The notes under the pieces were generated by a model. It did not search any database and had not been told where the DNA came from. It worked only from the letters and a program-made list of their open reading frames with translations. A stretch of DNA of 64,000 bases from Streptococcus sp. Its GTDB lineage: Bacteria; Bacillota; Bacilli; Lactobacillales; Streptococcaceae. The translations under genes and the position numbers were made by a program. This document shows positions 28,946 through 41,094 of this stretch, piece by piece. Each line of letters opens with the position of its first letter. Positions within the stretch are counted from its first letter, which is position 1. Where the stretch lies: positions 17,798 through 81,797 of the forward strand of contig NZ_JAUMZR010000001.1 of assembly GCF_030528045.1 (NCBI RefSeq), in the 5' to 3' direction.

Positions 28946-29077
28946 GTAAACTCCTCATAGATAGTATGATTCTACTATACCATATTTTGTGGAAAAAAAC
29001 TATCTGGATTATCTGACTGGCGAAATAAGTGTGGTAAAATGAGAATAAGAAAATGACGGTATAGAATGAGGGGTATC

Positions 29078-30878
29078 ATGTTAGGTTTAAACTTTAAAGG
29101 AAGCTGGCGCCAATATCAAAAACAGGTCTTGGATCGTTTTCAGGACTATCAAGCAGATGGTCATGTTCATCTAGTGGCTGCTCCAGGGTCTGGAAAGACA
29201 ACCATTGGTATCGAGCTAATCGCTCGTTTTGGCAACCCAGCCCTCATCTTAGTTCCGACTGTCACCATTCGTGAACAATGGGTAGATAGGATTCAAACTG
29301 CATTTCTAGGGGAGGGTCAGAGGCTTTCAGACCTCGTTTCCCAAAACTTAAAGGAGATGAAGACATTAACGATTGTGACCTATCAGGCTTTTCATAGCGC
29401 CATGAACCAATTGCAATCACAAGAAGATGGAGAAGCAGAAGATTTTGTGGGGTTTGATTTGCTTGCAAGCCTAAGAGCTCAGAAAGTTGCGACTCTTTGT
29501 TTGGACGAATGCCACCACCTGCGCAATGAATGGTGGAAAAGTCTGGAAGCCTTTCGCAAACAGTATGAACCGCTGCAAGTCATCTCCCTGACAGCGACAC
29601 CACCTTATGACAGCGAGCCTGAACTCTGGGAACGCTATATCCGTATGTGTGGGGAGATCGATCAAGAAATCACGGTACTTGAACTAGTCAAGGAAGACAC
29701 TCTTTGCCCTCATCAGGATTTTGTCTACATGTGTTCACCAACAGCTGAAGAGGCGGAACGTCTCAAACGGTTTGAGGAGACTAAGCGGGACTATATTCAT
29801 CACCTTATAGTCGATCCTGATTTTCAAACATTTGTAGTAGGGTCTAAGGTTCTCAAAGGGGATATTTCATCTGATTTGCTCTTAGAAGATCCCAAGTACT
29901 TGTCTGCTATGTTGATTTATATGCATTCTCAGGGGTTAACGATTCCTCCTTCTTTACAAAATTTACTGGGAACCCAGAACCTTCCAGCATTGACCTCCTA
30001 CTGGCTGGAGACGCTGTTGCAGAGCATACTCTATCAGACACCAGATTGGTATGAGGATCCAGATGGATATAGGAAAAAGTTAGAGGCTGACTTAAAGGCG
30101 CGTGGGTTGGTGGAAAAACGTCAGGTTTATCTGGTTAAGTCTAAGGCTTCTGACCAGCTTTTAACCCAATCTCTGGGGAAGTTGTCTGCCATTGCCGATA
30201 TCTTTTTGACGGAGTATGAGAGTCTAGGTCAGGAACTGAGACAGTTAGTACTAGCTGACTATATTCGCAAGGATTTTGCTGCCTATCTGGGAGATGATCA
30301 GGCAACCATTTCTCAGTTGGGGGGTTCTCCCTTATTTTGAAAGCATTCGTCGAAAAGCTCAGGAGCAAGAGATACCTGTGTCTTTGGCTGTTTTGACAGG
30401 TAGTGTCGTTATTTTGCCTACCGATGTGGCAGCAGAGTTGAAGGAGCTCTTGCCTCAGGTTCCTCTTAATTTCTCATCTATTGGTCACTTGGATCCAAAA
30501 GATTATGTGCAGGTTGGTTTTCCGAGCTCAGCTAAGGGAATCGTAGCGGCAGTGACGGAGCTTTTTCAACGAGGGCGGATTCAAGTCCTAGTCGGAACCA
30601 AATCTCTCCTCGGAGAGGGTTGGGATGCTCCTTGTGTCAATTCCCTAATCCTCGGAAGCTTTGTGGGGAGCTTTATGCTCAGTAACCAGATGCGTGGGCG
30701 TGCCATTCGTATCTGGCCGGGACATCCAGAAAAGACCAGTAACATCTGGCATCTGGTAGCCGTTCAAGCGCAGGCGCTTATCACTCTTCCTAGTGAGGAG
30801 CCTAGATCAGAGAGTAATCAGGATCTGCAGACCTTGTCGCGACGGATGGAGCATTTTCTTGGATTGGCCTATAAATAA
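29078..30878 (+). pseudogene. DEAD/DEAH-box superfamily-2 helicase, disrupted by a frameshift at a G6 tract
   Basis: Motif I VAAPGSGKT, motif II DECHH, motif III SLTATP and motif VI QMRGRAIR are spread across two overlapping frames (ORFs 29066..30340 and 30276..30878). The frame switch maps to the homopolymer GGGGGG at 30319-30324. Confidence 0.7.
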
Positions 30879-30888
30879 TAAGGAGAGT

Positions 30889-31716
30889 ATTGAGACCGGT
30901 TTGGATCGTTTGGATTTTCCAAAGCCCCCTTTTAAGAAAAAGCAAATTAGTGAGTACAATGAGCGAGTTAAGAGTCTCTCCAAGGATCGAGCAGGCTTGA
31001 GAAAAAAATGGCAGGAAGCTCTTGTCGTAGCAGATCAGTTCGAGATAGTTACAGAAGTCGCAACTCAAAAACAGAAAATTCCAGTCATGCTCTTGCTTGA
31101 TGCATTAAAATGGGTTCGCATGTCATTGCTCTTGTTAGCAGTGGATTTGTTGGTTTTGCTATTTAGACTGAGACTGATTGGTGTTTGGTGGCTTACGACA
31201 GTCTGTCTCATCTTTTTGGCCTTTGCATCTTGGCGCTACCTCCGCTATAAGAGTCCTTGTAAACGATTGCAGTCTCTGGGTGAGCAGATCCGAAAGGCTT
31301 TGCTAGATTCGGGGCATCTAACGGACAATCAATCCCGTGTTCAGGTAGAGGAGGACAAGGAAAACTACATGGTTTTCGCCTACCTCAAGGGAGGAAGCAT
31401 GAGGGACAAGGAGCTGTTTGCACAGACTGTGGGAGAGTTCTTTGCTCCAGTGGACAACCAGCGCTATCTCTTGAAGGCAGAGAAAGTCCGACAAGGTCAG
31501 TCACCTTACTATGCCGTGCCTAGTCTTTTTGAGAAGCGCAAGGAAGAAGCACAGAAATTCCTCGACTTTATGAGGCCAACTATCGGACGCTATCACCTCG
31601 TCTACACACGAACAGAGGCCGGACGGAAAACCCTTCTCGAAGCTCGTATCAAAGCTCTCTCCAATCAAAACGACCGTACCTTGACTAAGAAGAAGGTTAA
31701 AAATCGATTAGAGTAG
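30889..31716 (+). CDS. Hypothetical membrane-associated protein downstream of the helicase (or its C-terminal domain)
   Basis: The reading frame continues after the helicase's tandem TAA TAA stops and an AGGAGAG RBS, but no canonical start codon is well placed (ATT at 30889, TTG at 30901). Two predicted TM helices (LLLLAVDLLVLLF; WWLTTVCLIFLAFASW). Confidence 0.4.
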   Translation: METGLDRLDFPKPPFKKKQISEYNERVKSLSKDRAGLRKKWQEALVVADQFEIVTEVATQKQKIPVMLLLDALKWVRMSLLLLAVDLLVLLFRLRLIGVWWLTTVCLIFLAFASWRYLRYKSPCKRLQSLGEQIRKALLDSGHLTDNQSRVQVEEDKENYMVFAYLKGGSMRDKELFAQTVGEFFAPVDNQRYLLKAEKVRQGQSPYYAVPSLFEKRKEEAQKFLDFMRPTIGRYHLVYTRTEAGRKTLLEARIKALSNQNDRTLTKKKVKNRLE

Positions 31717-31727
31717 GGTAGGTAGCT

Positions 31728-31925
31728 ATTCGAAGTTTCGAAGATATGAATTTACTAAAGTTTATATGCATTCTAAACTTAGAATGGAAAGAAATACATA
31801 AATTTATGAGCATTCTAAGCTTCGAATAGTCTAGCTGAGAAAGTTTTGGGGTCTTCTAGTTTTCGAACAGTCATCTTTCTTAAAGTTTAGATGTATTCTA
31901 AGGCTAGAAAAGTTAAAATCTAAAA
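31728..31925. repeat. BOX-like tandem module repeat (boxB-like units)
   Basis: Three or more tandem imperfect units of about 45 bp (..tgcattctaaacttagaatgg.. / ..gagcattctaagcttcgaatag.. / ..gatgtattctaaggctagaaaag..) carrying cttcgaa palindromes. It marks the left edge of the accessory island. Confidence 0.5.
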
Positions 31926-32130
31926 ATAGTAAGAGTCTCTATCTGATAGACGGGTATGTTTCCAGTCAGATAGGGATTTTCTGTTTCTGAAATGACTGAT
32001 TTATCCTGTAAAAGTAAGAAATAGACTGAAAAAGTGCTATTGGGATGATAAAGTAGACAGTTGAGAGGATGAGTGTCCTAAGTTCTTTGCTATTTGTTAG
32101 AATTGTCTTATCAACTTAAAGGAGAAATCT

Positions 32131-32293
32131 GATGAAGAAAGATAAAGAAAATGAGGAAAGTATGCTATCGACACTTCCTCTATGGGGCCTCCTATTTTTG
32201 GTCTGTGTATTACTTCAAGTCTATGTAGGAAAGGATAGGCCTTTGATTCAACCTCCTAGACAAGGAAGCATTGTAAAAACAGATCAAAAATAG
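32131..32293 (+). CDS. Putative small membrane peptide (54 aa)
   Basis: An ORF below the track threshold: MKKDKENEESMLSTLPLWGLLFLVCVLLQVYVGKDRPLIQPPRQGSIVKTDQK. A GGAG-like RBS (aaggagaaatctg) is upstream. One hydrophobic helix. Confidence 0.3.
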
Positions 32294-32372
32294 GTCTATC
32301 TTCCAGAACTAATCCAGTCTTGGTTTGATAAAGAAAAAACTAAATGATTCGTTAAATAGAAAGGTTATCATC

Positions 32373-33134
32373 ATGACAAAAACATTCACTATCTGCCCTC
32401 TAAGCTACACAAACTCTACCAACCGCGAGTTTGAAAGTCTCATGGTAGATACGGGTCAACTACTAGAAGTTTTTGCCAAGGCACATAAGGACGAGCCTAT
32501 GTATAGCAAACATCTCGATTCCTTCAAGAGCAGGCTAGCAGACTTCCAAAGCCAACTCGCTATCGTCGAAAAGAAAGAGGAGACGAACCTGACCGAAGTT
32601 GATCGAAATCGTGACAGTGCCCTAGTCGGTCTCTTTACCCTTCATCGAGGATTTGCTAAGATTAAGGAGACCAAACTCAAAGAAGCCCATGAGACCTTGA
32701 AACCAGTCTTTGCCAAGTACAAGGACATCACCAAGCATAGCAATGGTGTGGAAACGGCAGAAATCAAGAGTCTGCTCAAAACCCTCAGTGAAGAACCCTA
32801 CCAAACAGCAGTTACTAGTCTAGGATTGACACCTATGCTGACGGAGGTGATCAGTGCGCAGGAGGAGTATGATAAGGTGGAAAGTCAGGCGCGTGCGCAT
32901 AAGTCTACCAAGGAAGTCGGCAAGACTAGACAAGTCCGTACCGAACTAACCAGCATCTACGACCTCTTTATGCGCTATACCGCAGCCAGCGCAGAAGCCT
33001 ATCCAGAAAAAGAACACCTGACCAAACTCCTCAAGGACCTGAACACAATCCGAGATAGCAAGCGCCGATTGAGTGGTTCGAGTAAGAAGGATAAGAAAGT
33101 GAAAGTAGAAGAAGCAGAACAAGTAGCAGGATAA
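32373..33134 (+). CDS. Hypothetical protein (253 aa, charged/alpha-helical)
   Basis: ORF track 32325..33134. The ATG at 32373 is preceded by GAAAGG. No recognisable catalytic motif. GC content is like the core genome. Confidence 0.5.
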   Translation: MTKTFTICPLSYTNSTNREFESLMVDTGQLLEVFAKAHKDEPMYSKHLDSFKSRLADFQSQLAIVEKKEETNLTEVDRNRDSALVGLFTLHRGFAKIKETKLKEAHETLKPVFAKYKDITKHSNGVETAEIKSLLKTLSEEPYQTAVTSLGLTPMLTEVISAQEEYDKVESQARAHKSTKEVGKTRQVRTELTSIYDLFMRYTAASAEAYPEKEHLTKLLKDLNTIRDSKRRLSGSSKKDKKVKVEEAEQVAG

Positions 33135-33225
33135 GAATAAACGTCTTTAGATATATTATTATCTAAAGGCGTTTTTTTGGTGGATTCGTGGTATAATTTT
33201 AGTATGAGATAATGGAGGAATAATA

Positions 33226-34230
33226 ATGAATATTCAATATTTCAATGTTTTTTTGTGTCGAAATGGTGAGAAGACAGATTATGATTTATCTAAGTTAATT
33301 GATAAAATTCGAGTATCTTCTTCTGTAGAAAGAACTGTAAAGTTAGGGAGTCAGCATACTATGTTTATGAATAATAGTAGAAACCCTTCAAGTAGTAAGA
33401 CGAGTGGTTCTTCTTTGGATGGTTTAGAGTATCTCCCTAGAAATAGGACAGTCTGGATTGGAAAGTATCGAAGTGAAAAACCATATGAGGGGAGGATAGG
33501 TGAAGAAGAAATTAAACAAATTGATGGAGACCTTTTCGAACCTAGTGTTTGTTTGATTATTCCTACATCGTATCTTTTTTTAATGGAGAGAAAGTTTTTA
33601 GGACCTTCAATAAACCAAATAGGAGAGTATTTATCAAGCTTTATAAAGAGTAACGATCCTAATGTAAAGTATTCGGTGAAATTTGAGCCTATGAAAACAG
33701 ATAGTTTAAAACCTTTGATAGAAGCTTCTGAGAGTATTAAATCAATCGTGATTCAGATTAAAAATGAAGGTTTTCAATTGTCAAGTTTATTTCCAGATAT
33801 TAATGATAGCAATAAAACACTATTAGAAAAGTTATTTGGTAATATGATTGAAGTGTCTGAAGAATTAGATATAAATACTACTACTGTAGCATTTAAGAAA
33901 AGTCGGTATAAAAGAGAAATGGATATAAAACGTGTTGATGGCATTTTAAAGTTATTAAACTCTTCAGATAAAAATTTAATTTCTGCAAAAGTTGAATTTT
34001 TAAATCCAGAGACACATAGATTTGATGAAGTGGATTTAAAGAAAGATGGTTTTTATATTTTGGAAAAAACTTCTTTAAAAACTGAGGATTTTGATAAATT
34101 AGCTAATCTAATGACAGCGCATTATTATGATGACCAGAATCGTAATAAAGATCTTTACTATACTTCGTTTGGTTCTTTGTTATCTGTTGATGAGAGTGAA
34201 TTTGAAATTGTAACTGAGAATAGCATATAA
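33226..34230 (+). CDS. Hypothetical protein (334 aa), AT-rich, island-borne
   Basis: Strong RBS GGAGG. GC is markedly lower than the flanking core. No identifiable domain. Confidence 0.55.
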   Translation: MNIQYFNVFLCRNGEKTDYDLSKLIDKIRVSSSVERTVKLGSQHTMFMNNSRNPSSSKTSGSSLDGLEYLPRNRTVWIGKYRSEKPYEGRIGEEEIKQIDGDLFEPSVCLIIPTSYLFLMERKFLGPSINQIGEYLSSFIKSNDPNVKYSVKFEPMKTDSLKPLIEASESIKSIVIQIKNEGFQLSSLFPDINDSNKTLLEKLFGNMIEVSEELDINTTTVAFKKSRYKREMDIKRVDGILKLLNSSDKNLISAKVEFLNPETHRFDEVDLKKDGFYILEKTSLKTEDFDKLANLMTAHYYDDQNRNKDLYYTSFGSLLSVDESEFEIVTENSI

Positions 34231-34259
34231 AAATCCAAAACTAGAAAGGAGATGATGTC

Positions 34260-34802
34260 ATGCTTAAATTTATTGATAAATATTTTTGGTGGAGTTTATC
34301 AATCATAATTGTATTAATTGTTGCAGTGTCTCTCTTTTTAGGAAATTATCTAGAGTTATATGATTGGTTTTACAAAAATGCCTATACAAATAATGCGAAT
34401 TTAGTGACCATTTCAACAGTTTTTATTGGTATTTATTTTTCTTTATACGGTTTTTTATTGAGTTCAAATACAAATTCCCTTATATCAAAACTTAAGTTAA
34501 AAGAATATAAGAGACTAGTCTCAATAGTTAATAGAGGATTTATATCTAGTTTTATTATCGTTATATTTTCTTTTTTTAATGAAAATATCTATAATTGGGT
34601 AAGTGAAATTTATATACTGTTCTTGTTTTTTATTTTTCTCTTACTTATTGGTTCTGCAATTCAAATAGCTATTTATTTTACATTACTTTTTAGATATGAT
34701 TTGAATAAAAAATATAATAGTTTTGATGAAGATATAAAAAAAGAAATTCTAGATGACGAATTGCGTAAAAAGTTAAAACAATTTTTAGATAGAGAGTTAT
34801 AA
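34260..34802 (+). CDS. Hypothetical 4-TM membrane protein (180 aa)
   Basis: RBS AAAGGAG. Four hydrophobic helices and a charged C-terminal tail. The gene ends 4 nt before the hsdS start. Confidence 0.55.
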   Translation: MLKFIDKYFWWSLSIIIVLIVAVSLFLGNYLELYDWFYKNAYTNNANLVTISTVFIGIYFSLYGFLLSSNTNSLISKLKLKEYKRLVSIVNRGFISSFIIVIFSFFNENIYNWVSEIYILFLFFIFLLLIGSAIQIAIYFTLLFRYDLNKKYNSFDEDIKKEILDDELRKKLKQFLDREL

Positions 34803-34808
34803 GAGTTG

Positions 34809-35465
34809 ATGAAAAGAATGATACCTAAAATTATTTTTAATAGAGAAAAGAAAGATTGGATTAAAAGACCTTTATTATCTAATATAGAAAAAATCATAGA
34901 TTACAGGGGTAGAACACCTAAAAAATTAGGTTTAAATTGGAGTGATACAGGTTATCTAGCTCTATCTGCTTTAAATGTAAAGAATGGCTATATTGATTTC
35001 AAGGCCACTGCCAATTATGGAGATCAAGAATTGTATGAACGATGGATGGGAGATAATCATCTTCATAAAGGACAAGTTGTTTTTACTACTGAGGCACCGA
35101 TGGGTAACGTTGCACAGATTCCTAATGATGATTTGTATATTCTAAGTCAACGTACGATTGCCTTTGAAGTTAAACGTGATTTAATTCGGGAAGATTTTTT
35201 AGCCACTTTATTGCGTAGCCAAAAAATATTTAATGAATTAACTTCTTTATCTAGCGGAGGAACTGCAAAAGGAGTTAGTCAAAAATCTTTATCAAATCTC
35301 AAAGTTTGTTTGCCCACATCATTAGAAGAACAATCCGCTATTGGCACCCTTTTCCGCATCCTTGACGACCTTCTAGCAAGCTACAAGAATACCAATCTCT
35401 CAAGGCGACCATGCTTTCTAAGATGTTTCCAAAAGCTGGACAGACAGCACCTGAGATTCGTTTAG
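34809..35465 (+). CDS. hsdS: Type I restriction-modification specificity subunit, N-terminal half (TRD1 plus central conserved region)
   Basis: A TRD-like region followed by the conserved LPTSLEEQSAIGTLFRILDDLLAS central repeat. The frame is lost at about 35372-35380. Confidence 0.7.
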   Translation: MKRMIPKIIFNREKKDWIKRPLLSNIEKIIDYRGRTPKKLGLNWSDTGYLALSALNVKNGYIDFKATANYGDQELYERWMGDNHLHKGQVVFTTEAPMGNVAQIPNDDLYILSQRTIAFEVKRDLIREDFLATLLRSQKIFNELTSLSSGGTAKGVSQKSLSNLKVCLPTSLEEQSAIGTLFRILDDLLASYKNTNLSRRPCFLRCFQKLDRQHLRFV

Positions 35466-36037
35466 ATGGATTTGAAGGTGAGTGGGAAATAAAGAAATTT
35501 AAGAGCATAAGTAATAAAAGAGGGAAATCGAACAGCAAAGGGTATGATTATCCAGCATATTCTGTTAGCAATCAGAGTGGGTTGATTCCTCAATCGGAAC
35601 AATTCGAAGGAAGTCGTTTAGAAAATCTTGAAAAAACGTCATATAAGATAGTTGAACCAAACGAGTTCGCATATAATCCAGCTCGTATAAATGTCGGGTC
35701 CATTGCATTTAATGATCTACATGAAACGGTAATAGTTAGTTCTTTGTATGTCATTTTTTCGTTAGATAACTCAATGGATAACAACTACGCGCTACTGTTT
35801 ATAAAATCACCAGAGTTCAATAAAGAAGTTAGAAGAAATACGGAGGGGAGTGTGAGGGAATATCTTTTTTATGAAAACTTCGCAAATGTTCGGATTCCAA
35901 TACCTCCGTCACTCGAAGAACAACGTGCCATCGGCTCCTATTTCTCTAACTTCGATAACCTCATCAACTCTCACCAAGAAAAAATTTCTCAGCTTGAGAC
36001 ACTGAAAAAGAAACTCTTGCAGGATATGTTTATATAA
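35411..36037 (+). CDS. hsdS: Type I restriction-modification specificity subunit, C-terminal half (TRD2 plus distal conserved region)
   Basis: KMFPKAGQTAPEIRLDGFEGEWE marks the canonical start of TRD2. The C-terminal conserved repeat PPSLEEQRAIGSYFSNFDNLINSHQEKISQLETLKKKLLQDMF is present. It lies in a -1 frame relative to the first half. Confidence 0.7.
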   Translation: MLSKMFPKAGQTAPEIRLDGFEGEWEIKKFKSISNKRGKSNSKGYDYPAYSVSNQSGLIPQSEQFEGSRLENLEKTSYKIVEPNEFAYNPARINVGSIAFNDLHETVIVSSLYVIFSLDNSMDNNYALLFIKSPEFNKEVRRNTEGSVREYLFYENFANVRIPIPPSLEEQRAIGSYFSNFDNLINSHQEKISQLETLKKKLLQDMFI

Positions 36038-36052: not shown

Positions 36053-36967
36053 ATGTCAAAAGTAAAATCAGAAACTCTAAAGAAAGAAGAAAAACCTGTA
36101 GTAGCAATTTGCTATGATTTTGATACAACGCTGTCTCCTGATGATATGCAAGCCCAAGGATTTATACAGAAGCTTGGGTATGAAATCAGTGAATTTTGGA
36201 AGAAATCCAATGGTTTTGCCAAGGCTAATAATATGGACAAGAACCTTGCCTATATGTTTACGATGAAAACAGAATCTGCAGGAAAGGTTTTATATACAAA
36301 GACAGAGTTAGCCAAGTTTGGTTCAGAGGTAGAACTATTCCCAGGAGTCAAAGACTGGTTCGAACGCATTCGAAAATATGGTGAAGATAACGGAGTTATT
36401 GTTGAGCATTATATCATTTCATCCGATTTGAAAGAAATGATAGAGGGGACTTCAATAGCTAAAAATGGTGCTTTTAAGAAAATTTATGCGACTTCTTTTT
36501 ATTGTGATGAAAGTGGGGTTGCGGTCTGGCCAGCTCAAGTAGTGAATTACACCAATAAGACTCAATTTCTTTTTAGAATTACCAAAGGTATTTTAGATGT
36601 CAATGACGATGCAGTGAATGATTTTTTTGCTGAAAGTGATTTACGAGTTCCTTTTAGAAATATGGTTTACTTAGGGGATAGTGATACAGATATTCCATGT
36701 ATGAAGCTAGTCAAAACAAGAGGTGGCTACTCTATCGGTGTATTCAATCCAAAAACCAATGACAGAAAGAAAGTTCACAAAATGACTCAGGATAATCGTA
36801 TTGATTATTTTGTTCCAGCTGACTACTCAGAAAATACAGAACTTGATAAACTAATCAAGACGATTATTAAAAAGGCGGCTTATAATGAATTGTTAGAAAA
36901 CAAGAAAAATGCTGATAAACTTGAAGCAAACTTAAGAAAGCGAAAAAGAAATCCAAAACTAAGATAA
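36053..36967 (+). CDS. HAD-superfamily hydrolase (phosphatase), island-borne
   Basis: Motif I DxDxT is present as VAICYDFDTTL (D22-F-D24-T-T). Motif IV GDxxxD is present as YLGDSDTDIP. A lysine-rich C-terminal tail. AT-rich. Confidence 0.65.
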   Translation: MSKVKSETLKKEEKPVVAICYDFDTTLSPDDMQAQGFIQKLGYEISEFWKKSNGFAKANNMDKNLAYMFTMKTESAGKVLYTKTELAKFGSEVELFPGVKDWFERIRKYGEDNGVIVEHYIISSDLKEMIEGTSIAKNGAFKKIYATSFYCDESGVAVWPAQVVNYTNKTQFLFRITKGILDVNDDAVNDFFAESDLRVPFRNMVYLGDSDTDIPCMKLVKTRGGYSIGVFNPKTNDRKKVHKMTQDNRIDYFVPADYSENTELDKLIKTIIKKAAYNELLENKKNADKLEANLRKRKRNPKLR

Positions 36968-37797: not shown

Positions 37798-37840
37798 TTG
37801 CTTGTTTAAAAATAAATTGCAAAACTTAGAAAGAAACATT

Positions 37841-39442
37841 ATGGAAACAACACAAACTTCCCAGTCGCTCTACCAAGCCCTGTGGAACTCAGCGGATGTT
37901 CTCCGCTCCAAGATGGATGCTAATGACTATAAGTCCTATCTCTTGGGCATGGTCTTTTATAAGTATCTGTCAGACAAGATGCTCTTTTTCGTGGCTGAGA
38001 CTATGGAAGAGGGGACAGATAGTCTTGAGGATACACTTGAGGTCTATCGTAACTACTACGAGGATGCGGATACTCATGAGGATCTGGTCTCTGTCATGAA
38101 CGATGAACTCAACTATATCATCAAGCCAGACTTGACCTTTACGGCTTTGGTAGCGCATGTCAATGAGGGGACTTTTCAGCTAGAAGATCTGGCTCAAGGT
38201 TTTCGTGATATCGAGCAGAGTGACGACCTTTATGAAAACCTCTTTGAAGATATCGACCTTTACTCTAAAAAGCTAGGGGCGACTCCGCAAAAGCAAAACC
38301 AAACGGTAGCAGCGGTCATGAAAGAGTTGGCTGTGCTAGATGTGGCTGGTCATGCTGGTGATATGTTGGGGGATGCCTATGAGTATCTGATCGGTCAGTT
38401 TGCGACTGACTCGGGTAAGAAAGCTGGTGAGTTCTATACGCCTCAGCCTGTTGCCAAGCTCATGACGCAGATTGCCTTTTTGGGTCGTGAGGACCAGCAA
38501 GGATTTACCATCTATGATGCGACTATGGGTTCTGGATCTCTCTTGCTCAATGCCAAGAAATACTCTCATAAACCGCAAACGGTTGTCTACTTTGGTCAGG
38601 AGCTCAATACCTCCACTTATAACTTGGCTCGGATGAACATGATCCTACACGGCGTTCCAGTTGAGAATCAATTTCTCCACAATGCCGATACCTTGGATGA
38701 AGACTGGCCGACACAGGAACCGACCAACTTTGATGGGGTTCTCATGAATCCTCCATACTCTGCCAAGTGGTCTGCAAGCTCTGGCTTCCTGAATGATCCT
38801 CGTTTCTCTCCTTTTTGGAAACTGGCACCACAATCCAAGGCTGATTTTGCCTTTCTCTTGCATGGTTACTACCATCTCAAGCAAGATAATGGAGTTATGG
38901 CTATCGTCCTTCCCCACGGTGTTCTTTTCCGTGGCAATGCGGAGGGAACCATTCGTAAGGCCTTGTTAGAAGAAGGAGCTATTGATACTGTTATCGGTCT
39001 ACCTGCCAATATCTTCTTTAATACCAGCATTCCGACCACGGTCATCATTCTCAAAAAGAATCGAACTAATCGTGATGTTTACTTTATCGATGCCTCTAAG
39101 GAGTTTGATAAAGGGAAAAACCAAAATATCATGACGGATGCCCATATCGACAAGATTCTGGAAGCCTACAAGTCTCGTGAGGAGATTGATAAGTTTGCCC
39201 ACCTAGCAAGCTATGAAGAAATTGTCGAAAATGACTATAACCTCAATATCCCTCGCTATGTAGACACCTTTGAGGAAGAAGAAGTCGAGCCGCTGACAGA
39301 CATCGTCAGCAAAATTAAAGACACAAATAAAGCTATCGAAAGCCAAACAGCTTCCCTACTTGAAATGCTGAACCAACTCCACGGAACCACACCAGAAGCC
39401 GATGCCGAACTCAAAGAGTTTTTGAAAAACTTTAAAGGGTGA
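37841..39442 (+). CDS. hsdM: Type I restriction-modification N6-adenine DNA methyltransferase subunit
   Basis: HsdM N-terminal domain (LWNSADVLRSKMDANDYKSYLLGMVFYKYLSD), an AdoMet motif (DATMGSGSLL) and the catalytic NPPYS motif (LMNPPYSAKW). The ATG at 37841 is preferred over the ORF-track TTG at 37802. Confidence 0.9.
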   Translation: METTQTSQSLYQALWNSADVLRSKMDANDYKSYLLGMVFYKYLSDKMLFFVAETMEEGTDSLEDTLEVYRNYYEDADTHEDLVSVMNDELNYIIKPDLTFTALVAHVNEGTFQLEDLAQGFRDIEQSDDLYENLFEDIDLYSKKLGATPQKQNQTVAAVMKELAVLDVAGHAGDMLGDAYEYLIGQFATDSGKKAGEFYTPQPVAKLMTQIAFLGREDQQGFTIYDATMGSGSLLLNAKKYSHKPQTVVYFGQELNTSTYNLARMNMILHGVPVENQFLHNADTLDEDWPTQEPTNFDGVLMNPPYSAKWSASSGFLNDPRFSPFWKLAPQSKADFAFLLHGYYHLKQDNGVMAIVLPHGVLFRGNAEGTIRKALLEEGAIDTVIGLPANIFFNTSIPTTVIILKKNRTNRDVYFIDASKEFDKGKNQNIMTDAHIDKILEAYKSREEIDKFAHLASYEEIVENDYNLNIPRYVDTFEEEEVEPLTDIVSKIKDTNKAIESQTASLLEMLNQLHGTTPEADAELKEFLKNFKG

Positions 39443-39535: not shown

Positions 39536-40111
39536 ATGGAACAAACTAACCAAAAATCCCAGTGCCAGCAACTCTGGGCTAGAAACAAATACCTCGTTTT
39601 GAGCCATTCTAGCAATATTTACAATGAGATTCGCCAATACTTGAAGAATGAACAGGTGGAGCTGAGTCAGGTTTAAGAGATGATTGACCGTGCCTGTCAA
39701 ATCCCAGAACACAATGGTCAGGTTTGCAATGCCTTCCAGCATGTTTGGGGCTATTTCAAAAAGAAAGCGACAGATGCCGAGCGTAAGGACTATATGCTCT
39801 TACTGGATCGCTACCGCTTTGGTCAGGCTTCCAAGGAAGACTTGATCGCTAAAACTCGAGACTTGCTTGATCGCTATCCAAATACCTACTTGCAACATTC
39901 TACTTTACTGAAAGGAGACTCCCATGAGACTTTGGCACGAGGCCTTGATTTCACAACTTCCCCGTCCGCAGCTTTTAGGCCAACATCGAGAGTGCTGTGC
40001 CCTGCGTGGCAATGGTTGGGGCAGAAAGCATGCGACGGTGGACTATGTCTTTACTCACTCGCCCTATCACCTCTATGCTTATCATCGCTTGATCATGGAG
40101 GAGATGGATAA
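39536..40111 (+). pseudogene. DUF1722 (YbgA-like) protein gene with an in-frame TAA nonsense codon
   Basis: A 47-aa ORF (MEQTNQKSQCQQLWARNKYLVLSHSSNIYNEIRQYLKNEQVELSQV) and ORF 39680..40111 lie in the same frame, separated only by TAA at 39675-39677. Together they align to the DUF1722 region of E. coli YbgA (ARHKYLLMAHSQQGYREL...NVLQHLLGYFKRHLSADER..YL). Confidence 0.55.
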
Positions 40112-40289
40112 CCGTGGCTACAATGTCAGTCCAGAGTGGTTGGACAAGAACTACCGTGGTAAGACTTGCTCTTCTTATCAAGACTTAGCAGAGGAGAAGC
40201 TAGGCAAGCCCATCTATAGTGAGCATGATGCAGGATACTATGAGGAGTGTCTGGCTAATCTCCGTGAGAAAGGGATTAAGCTGAAGTAA
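39924..40289 (+). CDS. Conserved hypothetical protein (TIGR02328-like), overlapping the DUF1722 3' region
   Basis: Strong RBS AAAGGAGA 5 nt upstream of ATG. The N-terminus MRLWHEALISQLPRPQLLGQHRE is typical of a small streptococcal family often found next to DUF1722 genes. Confidence 0.55.
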   Translation: MRLWHEALISQLPRPQLLGQHRECCALRGNGWGRKHATVDYVFTHSPYHLYAYHRLIMEEMDNRGYNVSPEWLDKNYRGKTCSSYQDLAEEKLGKPIYSEHDAGYYEECLANLREKGIKLK

Positions 40290-40442
40290 GAGTCAGGATT
40301 ATCTCTAATTTATAACTCTTCTCATAATTTTTTCGAATAATAAAAATGAGACCTTTAGAATGATTCTAAGGTCTTCTTTTTATGGGTATTAGGATTTACT
40401 TTCAATAACTTTTAAGTTATAATTAAATTGAAAAGAGGTTGC

Positions 40443-40811
40443 TTGGTGCATACAATTTACTTCTATAAGGACAAAAATGGAAATGAGCCAGTATTGGATT
40501 ATATGAGAGAATTGGCTAGTCGTAAAAGTAAGGATAGTCGCATAAAACTCAATAAACTAAACGACTATATCGAGCTACTTAATCAGCATGGGACTAGAGC
40601 TGGTGAACCCTATATTAAACATTTAGAAGATGAGATATGGGAACTAAGACCTCTGAGGGATAGGATTTTATTTATAGCGTGGGTTGATGGGAGTTTTGTT
40701 CTCTTACATCATTTTGTTAAAAAGACTCAGAAAACTCCTAGGAGAGAAATTGAAAAAGCCAAGCGTGAACTGAAGGACATAAAAGAAAGAGGGTTAAGTG
40801 ATGAAGAATAG
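40443..40811 (+). CDS. Type II toxin-antitoxin system RelE/ParE-superfamily toxin (HigB/Gp49-like)
   Basis: [22 protein letters not shown]...[13 protein letters not shown]...[28 protein letters not shown] matches the Gp49/HigB-like pattern. The upstream-toxin, downstream-HTH order is typical of higBA. The start (TTG at 40443 or GTG at 40446) is uncertain. Confidence 0.65.
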
Positions 40812-41094
40812 TGCCATTGGAAGTAATTGGAAGGATGTTCGGACAGAACTCTTTACCAAGGAAGAAATTCTTGAAAGCGATATGCGAGTGGCTATTATGA
40901 GTGAGTTAATTGAGGCTAGGCATGAGCAAGGTATCAGTCAGAAAAAGCTAGAGGAACTCAGTGGAGTAAGCCAGCCTGTTATAGCTAGGATGGAGACAGG
41001 AAAGACCAGTCCTCAGTTGGATACGGTCTTAAAAGTTTTAGCCAGTTTAGGAAAGACACTAGCAGTCGTCCCACTTGAACAGGAAAAAAGTTGA
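40798..41094 (+). CDS. XRE-family HTH antitoxin (HigA-like)
   Basis: HTH sequence [27 protein letters not shown]. Overlaps the toxin gene by 14 nt. Confidence 0.65.

Follow-up and report, generated by a model that had tools for sequence, protein, structure and literature searches.

Which function is carried by the two genes that lie directly upstream of hsdS in a decayed type I restriction-modification (R-M) operon of Streptococcus sp.? We analyzed a 64,000-nucleotide stretch of contig NZ_JAUMZR010000001.1 (hereafter the window, whose own numbering is used throughout), in which a gene for a soluble protein, termed A, is followed by a gene for a small four-transmembrane (four-TM) protein, termed B. 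We assign a probability of about 0.6 to the reading that the two genes make up an autonomous phage-exclusion (abortive-infection) module of the Rex type, a distant variant of lambda RexAB to which the pair is linked by analogy. Rex is the oldest known abortive-infection system. Defense cargo embedded in type I R-M loci, the candidate status of the PDC-M67 family, and Rex-type systems as a kind are already on record. The new elements are the model-based assignment of DUF6731/PDC-M67 to the RexA fold, a probable broadening of the Rex-type class to include Firmicutes and a chromosomal location within R-M operons, and a membrane partner that, judged by its sequence, falls outside the RexB family.

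Family, predicted fold and pairing of A and B

Both A and B are real genes under purifying selection. They are conserved in 12 Streptococcus loci, and the ratio of nonsynonymous to synonymous substitution rates (dN/dS) among orthologues from eight Streptococcus loci was 0.09-0.25 for A and 0.06-0.23 for B. The first-pass annotation of this DNA had described two AT-rich open reading frames (ORFs) with good ribosome-binding sites, 29 nt apart, encoding a soluble protein and a four-TM partner, and this description proved exact. The GC fraction is 0.295 for A and 0.221 for B (29.5% and 22.1%), compared to 0.429 for the whole window, and the AT-rich block extends past B into the first ~300 nt of hsdS. 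Both ribosome-binding sites are strong (GGAGG at 33214-33218, 7 nt 5' of the ATG of A; AAAGGAG at 34245-34251, 8 nt 5' of the ATG of B). No hydrophobic segment was found in A (maximum 19-residue Kyte-Doolittle mean of 1.29), and B has four, at about residues 9-28, 48-67, 88-106, and 116-144. The Lys and Arg residues of B are clustered at the N-terminus, in loop 2 (six residues), and in a charged C-tail of 35 residues; this distribution points to an N-in/C-in topology, in which the tail would be cytoplasmic. The best-conserved element of B is TM2, in which the motif VFIGIYF is invariant in the Streptococcus set.

The family membership of both proteins was assessed by profile searches. A matched Pfam DUF6731 over residues 129-303 with 33.7 bits (E = 3.7e-8), above the gathering threshold of 27 bits, and this domain was also matched by 35 of 53 relatives of A (best E = 2.5e-23). 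In PADLOC, A and B matched the two components of PDC-M67, namely PDC-M67A (2.4e-119) and PDC-M67B (5.2e-50), respectively. PDC-M67A was matched by all 53 sampled members of the A family, and PDC-M67B by the Lachnospiraceae partner proteins at 1e-6 to 1e-9. The B proteins from Streptococcus and Lachnospiraceae are related to each other, with an hhalign E-value of 2.4e-4 over 118 columns. Weak Pfam matches of B to TMEM128 and Tetraspanin lay below the cut-offs and were rejected as reflecting generic four-TM composition. The A family is small, with 108 representatives (50% identity) in a set of 1.84 billion proteins, nearly all of them stand-alone proteins of 310-350 aa. Wherever the sequence continues, A is directly followed by a B-family gene (21 of 21 loci, among them two IMG/VR viral contigs that were not used in building the B profile).

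The PDC systems are candidates picked by "guilt-by-embedding," with genes located within BREX, DISARM, and type I R-M loci as the source (Payne et al., 2024, bioRxiv 10.1101/2024.01.29.577857), and other authors have termed them "unpublished candidate systems." The A-B pair belongs to the PDC-M67 family and consists of adjacent genes embedded in a type I R-M locus, as the candidate was defined. A literature search for DUF6731 and PDC-M67 returned no papers, and no fold or mechanism for PDC-M67. Comparison of A, B, and the 53-sequence A profile with the sequences of the PDB gave no useful match.

The fold of A was predicted with AlphaFold2 (AF2). A first model built with 15 close homologues was poor, with a predicted local distance difference test (pLDDT) score of 64.5; in a Foldseek search of the PDB its sole strong match was lambda RexA (8TWQ, E = 1.5e-6), and RdgC came next. 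The model was rebuilt on a 50-sequence alignment including distant DUF6731 members, giving a pLDDT of 80.3 and a predicted template modeling score (pTM) of 0.66. Among the structural matches of A the second-best was RdgC (PDB 2OWL), a recombination-associated DNA-binding protein whose score was much lower than that of RexA, and no other match of the rebuilt model scored above 7. The order of elements in the model agrees with the published RexA topology, in which an N-terminal part of seven strands and one helix is followed by a middle domain of beta/alpha type and by helices at the C-terminus, and A is thus predicted to adopt the two-domain fold of RexA, with a split globular domain and a dimerization domain. 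Against viral models, Foldseek retrieved several uncharacterized phage proteins of 277-314 aa (best E = 1.5e-15), with phage RdgC lower. Whereas the first-pass annotation had found neither protein assignable to a family and had regarded A as a protein of unknown fold, both are catalogued (A as DUF6731/PDC-M67A and B as PDC-M67B), and the AF2 model and Foldseek predict a RexA-like fold for A.

A sequence link between A and RexA was also detected. The 53-sequence DUF6731 profile and a four-sequence RexA profile gave one colinear alignment of 236 columns (E = 2.4e-4), in which positions 4-274 of the query correspond to positions 1-247 of RexA. This alignment superimposes a GP motif that is invariant in the family (G126-P127 of A on G109-P110 of RexA) and an EP motif (E154-P155 on E135-P136). 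Among the 53 family members, one matched Pfam RexA, at 0.0093 and below the curated cut-off, and none matched PADLOC RexA; a sub-threshold PADLOC RexA match of 0.0062 was recorded for one Lachnospiraceae member. A is therefore not a member of the RexA sequence family, and the link is weak but consistent, so that homology of A to RexA is likely but not proven.

B is a small four-TM protein encoded directly downstream of A on the same strand. As far as can be read from its sequence, its likeness to RexB concerns size, the presence of four TM segments, an N-in/C-in distribution of charges, and the order of the genes. It is not a member of the RexB sequence family. Pairwise BLAST between B and RexB without composition correction gave E-values of about 3e-3 to 3e-4, which were discounted because of transmembrane composition bias.

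The likeness to lambda RexA/RexB (PF15969/PF15968; 8TWQ) thus includes adjacent, co-oriented genes encoding a soluble and then a small four-TM protein, the weak colinear profile similarity with its GP and EP motifs, and the frequent occurrence of A-B relatives in prophages. The differences are as follows. A is 55 residues longer than RexA, including a disordered insertion at residues 51-73, and belongs to a different Pfam family (DUF6731). B is 36 residues longer than the 144-aa RexB and ends in a charged tail, and no similarity between the two sequences was detectable. Lambda rexAB lies beside the cI repressor gene, whereas the A-B pair described here lies on the chromosome of a Gram-positive host, within a type I R-M operon. 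A 2026 paper puts the number of described Rex-like systems at only five, each prophage-encoded and from a host among the Proteobacteria or Actinobacteria (PMC12894663). Besides the lambda pair, RexABpp of Pseudomonas putida prophage P1, Sbash gp30/31, CarolAnn gp44/43, and Butters gp30/31 differ from A-B in host and context, the latter being from Firmicutes and, in Streptococcus, R-M-embedded.

Several results weigh against a Rex-type assignment. The sequence similarity behind the DUF6731/RexA alignment is marginal, with an hhalign probability of 44%; the A protein of the window matched neither Pfam RexA (PF15969) nor PADLOC RexA at E<=0.1, and the DUF6731 profile gave no significant match to the single lambda RexA sequence. 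For B, a permissive Pfam scan gave no match to RexB (PF15968) even at E<=10, PADLOC RexB was not matched, and four profile comparisons with RexB gave hhalign probabilities of only 0.2-1.6%; in view of this absence of significant similarity, the effector may be unrelated to RexB. The RexA fold predicted for A is also that of RdgC, which is not a defense protein. Even for lambda Rex, the trigger and mechanism are incompletely established.

Genomic contexts of the pair

We compared the window with related Streptococcus loci from S. cristatus, S. mitis, S. australis, S. oralis, S. parasanguinis, S. huangxiaojuni, and S. suis. The pair lies inside a type I R-M operon in the window and in 10 other complete Streptococcus loci. 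Where the operon is intact, mitis-group loci read (helicase)-hsdR-(DUF6261 or 221-aa gene)-A-B-hsdS-(variable cargo)-hsdM. The S. suis pair is embedded in an unrelated type I system with the order hsdM-hsdS-A-B-Fic-hsdR, where the start codon of A overlaps the stop codon of hsdS. One locus (L004) carries A-B without hsd genes.

The position occupied by A-B is variable between strains. In S. downii (L013, 10001-13116) only the first 29 codons of A are left (90% identity), and the slot then holds a 733-aa AAA_13 ATPase and a 247-aa protein with a DpnII/MboI-like domain. This remnant indicates that cargo was swapped by recombination within the slot, with retention of the promoter region. The slots around hsdS contain KAP NTPase and Fic proteins in other strains. 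In streptococcal type I systems, the hsdR-hsdS gap and the hsdS-hsdM gap thus serve as swap-in slots for defense cargo, and cargo can outlive its R-M system.

Among distant members of the family, which include pairs in Lachnospiraceae prophages, the prophage-borne pairs lie just 5' of terminase genes (L015; L020/L021) or beside a YqaJ/RecT module (L022). At L016/L017 the pair resides in a defense island with AAA_21-RloB, Fic, and AbiH, and at L018 it stands alone among metabolic genes. Neither in the R-M-embedded Streptococcus loci nor in these prophages is the pair located in an immunity region 3' of a cI-type repressor. The contexts devoid of R-M genes suggest that the pair is a mobile, self-contained module that can do without R-M genes. 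Together with the broken R-M system of the window, these distant relatives make the coupling to hsdS look like cargo embedding rather than functional dependence. The first-pass annotation had proposed an abortive-infection or sensor-effector type and had pointed to co-occurrence with R-M systems as informative. The PDC-M67 match, the RexB-like small membrane partner, and the defense contexts support the proposed type, and the pair does recur in type I R-M operons, as well as in prophages and a defense island.

A proposed Rex-type mechanism and its alternatives

Direct support exists for the predicted fold and topology, for the pairing of the genes, for selection, and for the genomic contexts; every mechanistic step given here is carried over by analogy from lambda RexAB and from RexABpp of P. 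putida. A would act as a DNA-binding dimer, probably sensing a phage replication or recombination intermediate, or else a phage protein. Once activated, A might contact the cytoplasmic face of B through the basic loop 2 and/or the charged C-tail, upon which a B oligomer would permeabilize or depolarize the membrane. The resulting drop in ATP and stop of growth would abort the infection. Placement in the hsd operon would provide co-expression from a promoter 5' of A and a layered defense, and need not imply physical dependence on the Hsd proteins.

Reversal of these roles was considered, with A as an effector that is toxic or antiviral, for example through DNA clamping, and B as a membrane protein that only sequesters or neutralizes A until infection. 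The Rex-like gp30/gp31 pair of mycobacteriophage Butters works in this manner (PMC12894663), and the DNA-clamp-type fold that the model of A appears to share with RdgC, along with the lack of similarity of B to the RexB channel family, would suit it. We nevertheless consider this arrangement unlikely: the membrane protein is the effector in four of the five described Rex-like systems (PMC12894663), and the conservation of B peaks in TM2, which fits a membrane-active role better than that of a simple anchor. A non-defense function is also improbable. In that case A would be a DNA-binding modulator of recombination or of the lysis-lysogeny switch with an RdgC/RexA fold, and B would be unrelated or accessory, acting for example in superinfection exclusion by blocking DNA entry. 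Consistent with such a function are the rank of RdgC among the structural matches, the RexB-independent role of lambda RexA at the bistable switch (PMC11077077), and the prophage location of several family members. RdgC, unlike A, has neither a membrane partner gene nor a defense context. A Kiwa-like system, considered on account of its similar protein sizes and its layout of a membrane and a soluble protein, has a very small chance of being correct. Kiwa consists of a small four-TM KwaA and a soluble KwaB of about 310 aa. It was rejected, since A is not in the KwaB/DUF4868 family and the order of kwaA (TM) followed by kwaB is not found here.

The position of the pair next to hsdS raises the further question of whether A-B is functionally linked to the Hsd complex, as PrrC is, and is set off once a phage anti-restriction protein has inactivated type I restriction. 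Of 11 complete Streptococcus loci, 10 have the pair directly against hsdS, with a 3-nt gap or a 4-nt overlap, and this arrangement occurs in two unrelated type I systems whose gene orders differ. PrrC provides a precedent for a cargo gene embedded almost exclusively in type I R-M, and a DNA-binding-type fold such as that predicted for A could in principle bind DNA-mimic anti-restriction proteins. The pair also resembles other R-M-embedded cargo (PrrC in EcoprrI, the Rlo genes of Campylobacter, and TgvAB of V. cholerae) in lying between hsd genes, in its presumed co-transcription with them, and in occupying variable slots. The proteins of these systems, an anticodon nuclease and GmrSD-like enzymes, are however unrelated to A and B, and PrrC functionally depends on its R-M partner, whereas no such dependence is indicated for A-B. 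Far from being confined essentially to type I R-M loci, the family has R-M-free members in prophages, at the stand-alone site among metabolic genes, and at L004. In the window itself, A-B is intact and under purifying selection despite an absent hsdR and a frameshifted hsdS. A role as a guard of R-M is accordingly a poor prospect. There is a similarly low probability that the two ideas combine, with a Rex-like pair serving as a second line of defense in which A would keep watch on the Hsd complex or on the DNA substrates of that complex and would activate B upon neutralization of R-M by phage anti-restriction proteins such as Ocr/ArdA-type DNA mimics. Such a PrrC-style guard made of Rex parts would account for the abutment on hsdS in two unrelated streptococcal systems, and we hold it to be doubtful.

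If the Rex-type reading is true, the Rex class reaches the Firmicutes, including oral and zoonotic streptococci and phages of gut Lachnospiraceae, and a so far anonymous PADLOC candidate acquires a fold as well as a mechanism that can be tested. It would also provide a case in which a Rex-type sensor is paired with a membrane protein from another sequence family, a point relevant to the coupling of sensor and effector.

The surrounding operon and its decay

The coordinates of the pair, its presumed signals, and the genes downstream are given in Table 1. The first-pass annotation had placed the pair in one operon with hsdS, 4 nt before its start. The operon is plausible: there is no terminator between B and hsdS, and with a hairpin and a -10 element 5' of A, these features are compatible with a single transcription unit starting at A. 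The near-contiguity also stands, although the distance was slightly off; the TAA of B ends at 34802, and hsdS has two start options, TTG at 34806 (3-nt gap) or ATG at 34809 (6-nt gap). Thus, A probably heads a transcription unit A-B-hsdS-cargo-cargo-hsdM, with a putative promoter and presumed translational coupling. The -10 element lacks a good -35 and is absent from the list produced by a promoter scan. That scan returned 25 sites against 24.5 expected, a count so close to chance in AT-rich DNA that it is uninformative.

Table 1. Features of the A-B locus, in window coordinates
Feature	Position	Strand	Description
Terminator-like hairpin	33139-33174	+	15-bp stem followed by a T-run; ends the upstream DUF6261 gene and forms the 5' boundary of the unit
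Putative extended -10, TGgTATAAT	33189-33197	+	29 nt 5' of the A start; read by eye from the sequence
Gene A	33226-34230	+	334 aa, soluble, acidic, pI 5.3; DUF6731, PDC-M67A; RexA-like fold predicted; proposed sensor
Gene B	34260-34802	+	180 aa, four hydrophobic segments, charged C-tail; PDC-M67B; proposed membrane effector, RexB analogue
hsdS	34806-36037	+	Two overlapping ORFs, 34806-35465 (219 aa) and 35411-36037 (208 aa); starts 3 nt after the B stop
HAD-like cargo gene	36053-36967	+	304 aa; PADLOC PDC-S34, 3.7e-156
Cargo gene, 251 aa	37042-37797	+	PADLOC PDC-S61, 1.3e-114; weak similarity to a PD-(D/E)xK model
hsdM, type I methyltransferase	37802-39442	+	HsdM_N and N6_Mtase

The specificity subunit named as the partner of the pair does adjoin B, but it is split into two ORFs, and hsdR is absent from the whole 64-kb window (1-64000). 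Compared to three related strains, hsdS carries a 13-bp deletion at 35388-35390 in its central conserved region, which causes the frameshift. Its first target-recognition domain is 86-95% identical to those of relatives, and the second about 40-45%. In relatives, a 996-997-aa HsdR is encoded between the helicase and the DUF6261 gene, at the equivalent of 31717-32324 in the window. Homology to S. cristatus DD08 resumes exactly after the hsdR stop of that strain, suggesting a clean deletion. The ResIII/DEAD helicase-like gene at 29066-31716 is broken into three frames (424, 200, and 307 aa), whereas the intact gene is a single ORF of 881-885 aa in S. downii and Streptococcus sp. HMSC056C01. An independent Logan assembly has an identical ORF structure, and therefore the split hsdS and helicase genes are probably real rather than assembly errors. 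The helicase-like gene, which may be a decayed defense gene adjoining the R-M island, encodes hydrophobic stretches in its C-terminal part and has a weak resemblance to PADLOC PbeA.

The HAD-like and 251-aa cargo proteins are defense candidates by virtue of their profile matches. The 304-aa HAD-like protein is shorter than the 383-398-aa versions of S. downii and S. huangxiaojuni. Upstream of A, a 269-aa DUF6261 protein (32325-33134; Pfam E = 2.7e-36) occupies the slot between hsdR and A in many strains; its gene is kept in S. downii although A-B has been replaced, which places it outside the A-B module. Just 3' of hsdM, the region 39680-40289 may represent a further frameshifted gene, in which a 121-aa ORF (39924-40289) encoding a Pyr_excise protein (a pyrimidine-dimer DNA glycosylase homologue) overlaps a 143-aa ORF (39680-40111) in another frame. 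At 40428-41094, a Gp49-family (HigB/RelE-like) ORF overlaps a downstream helix-turn-helix (HTH) ORF in what looks like a toxin-antitoxin pair, which is found after hsdM here and between hsdS and hsdM in some relatives.

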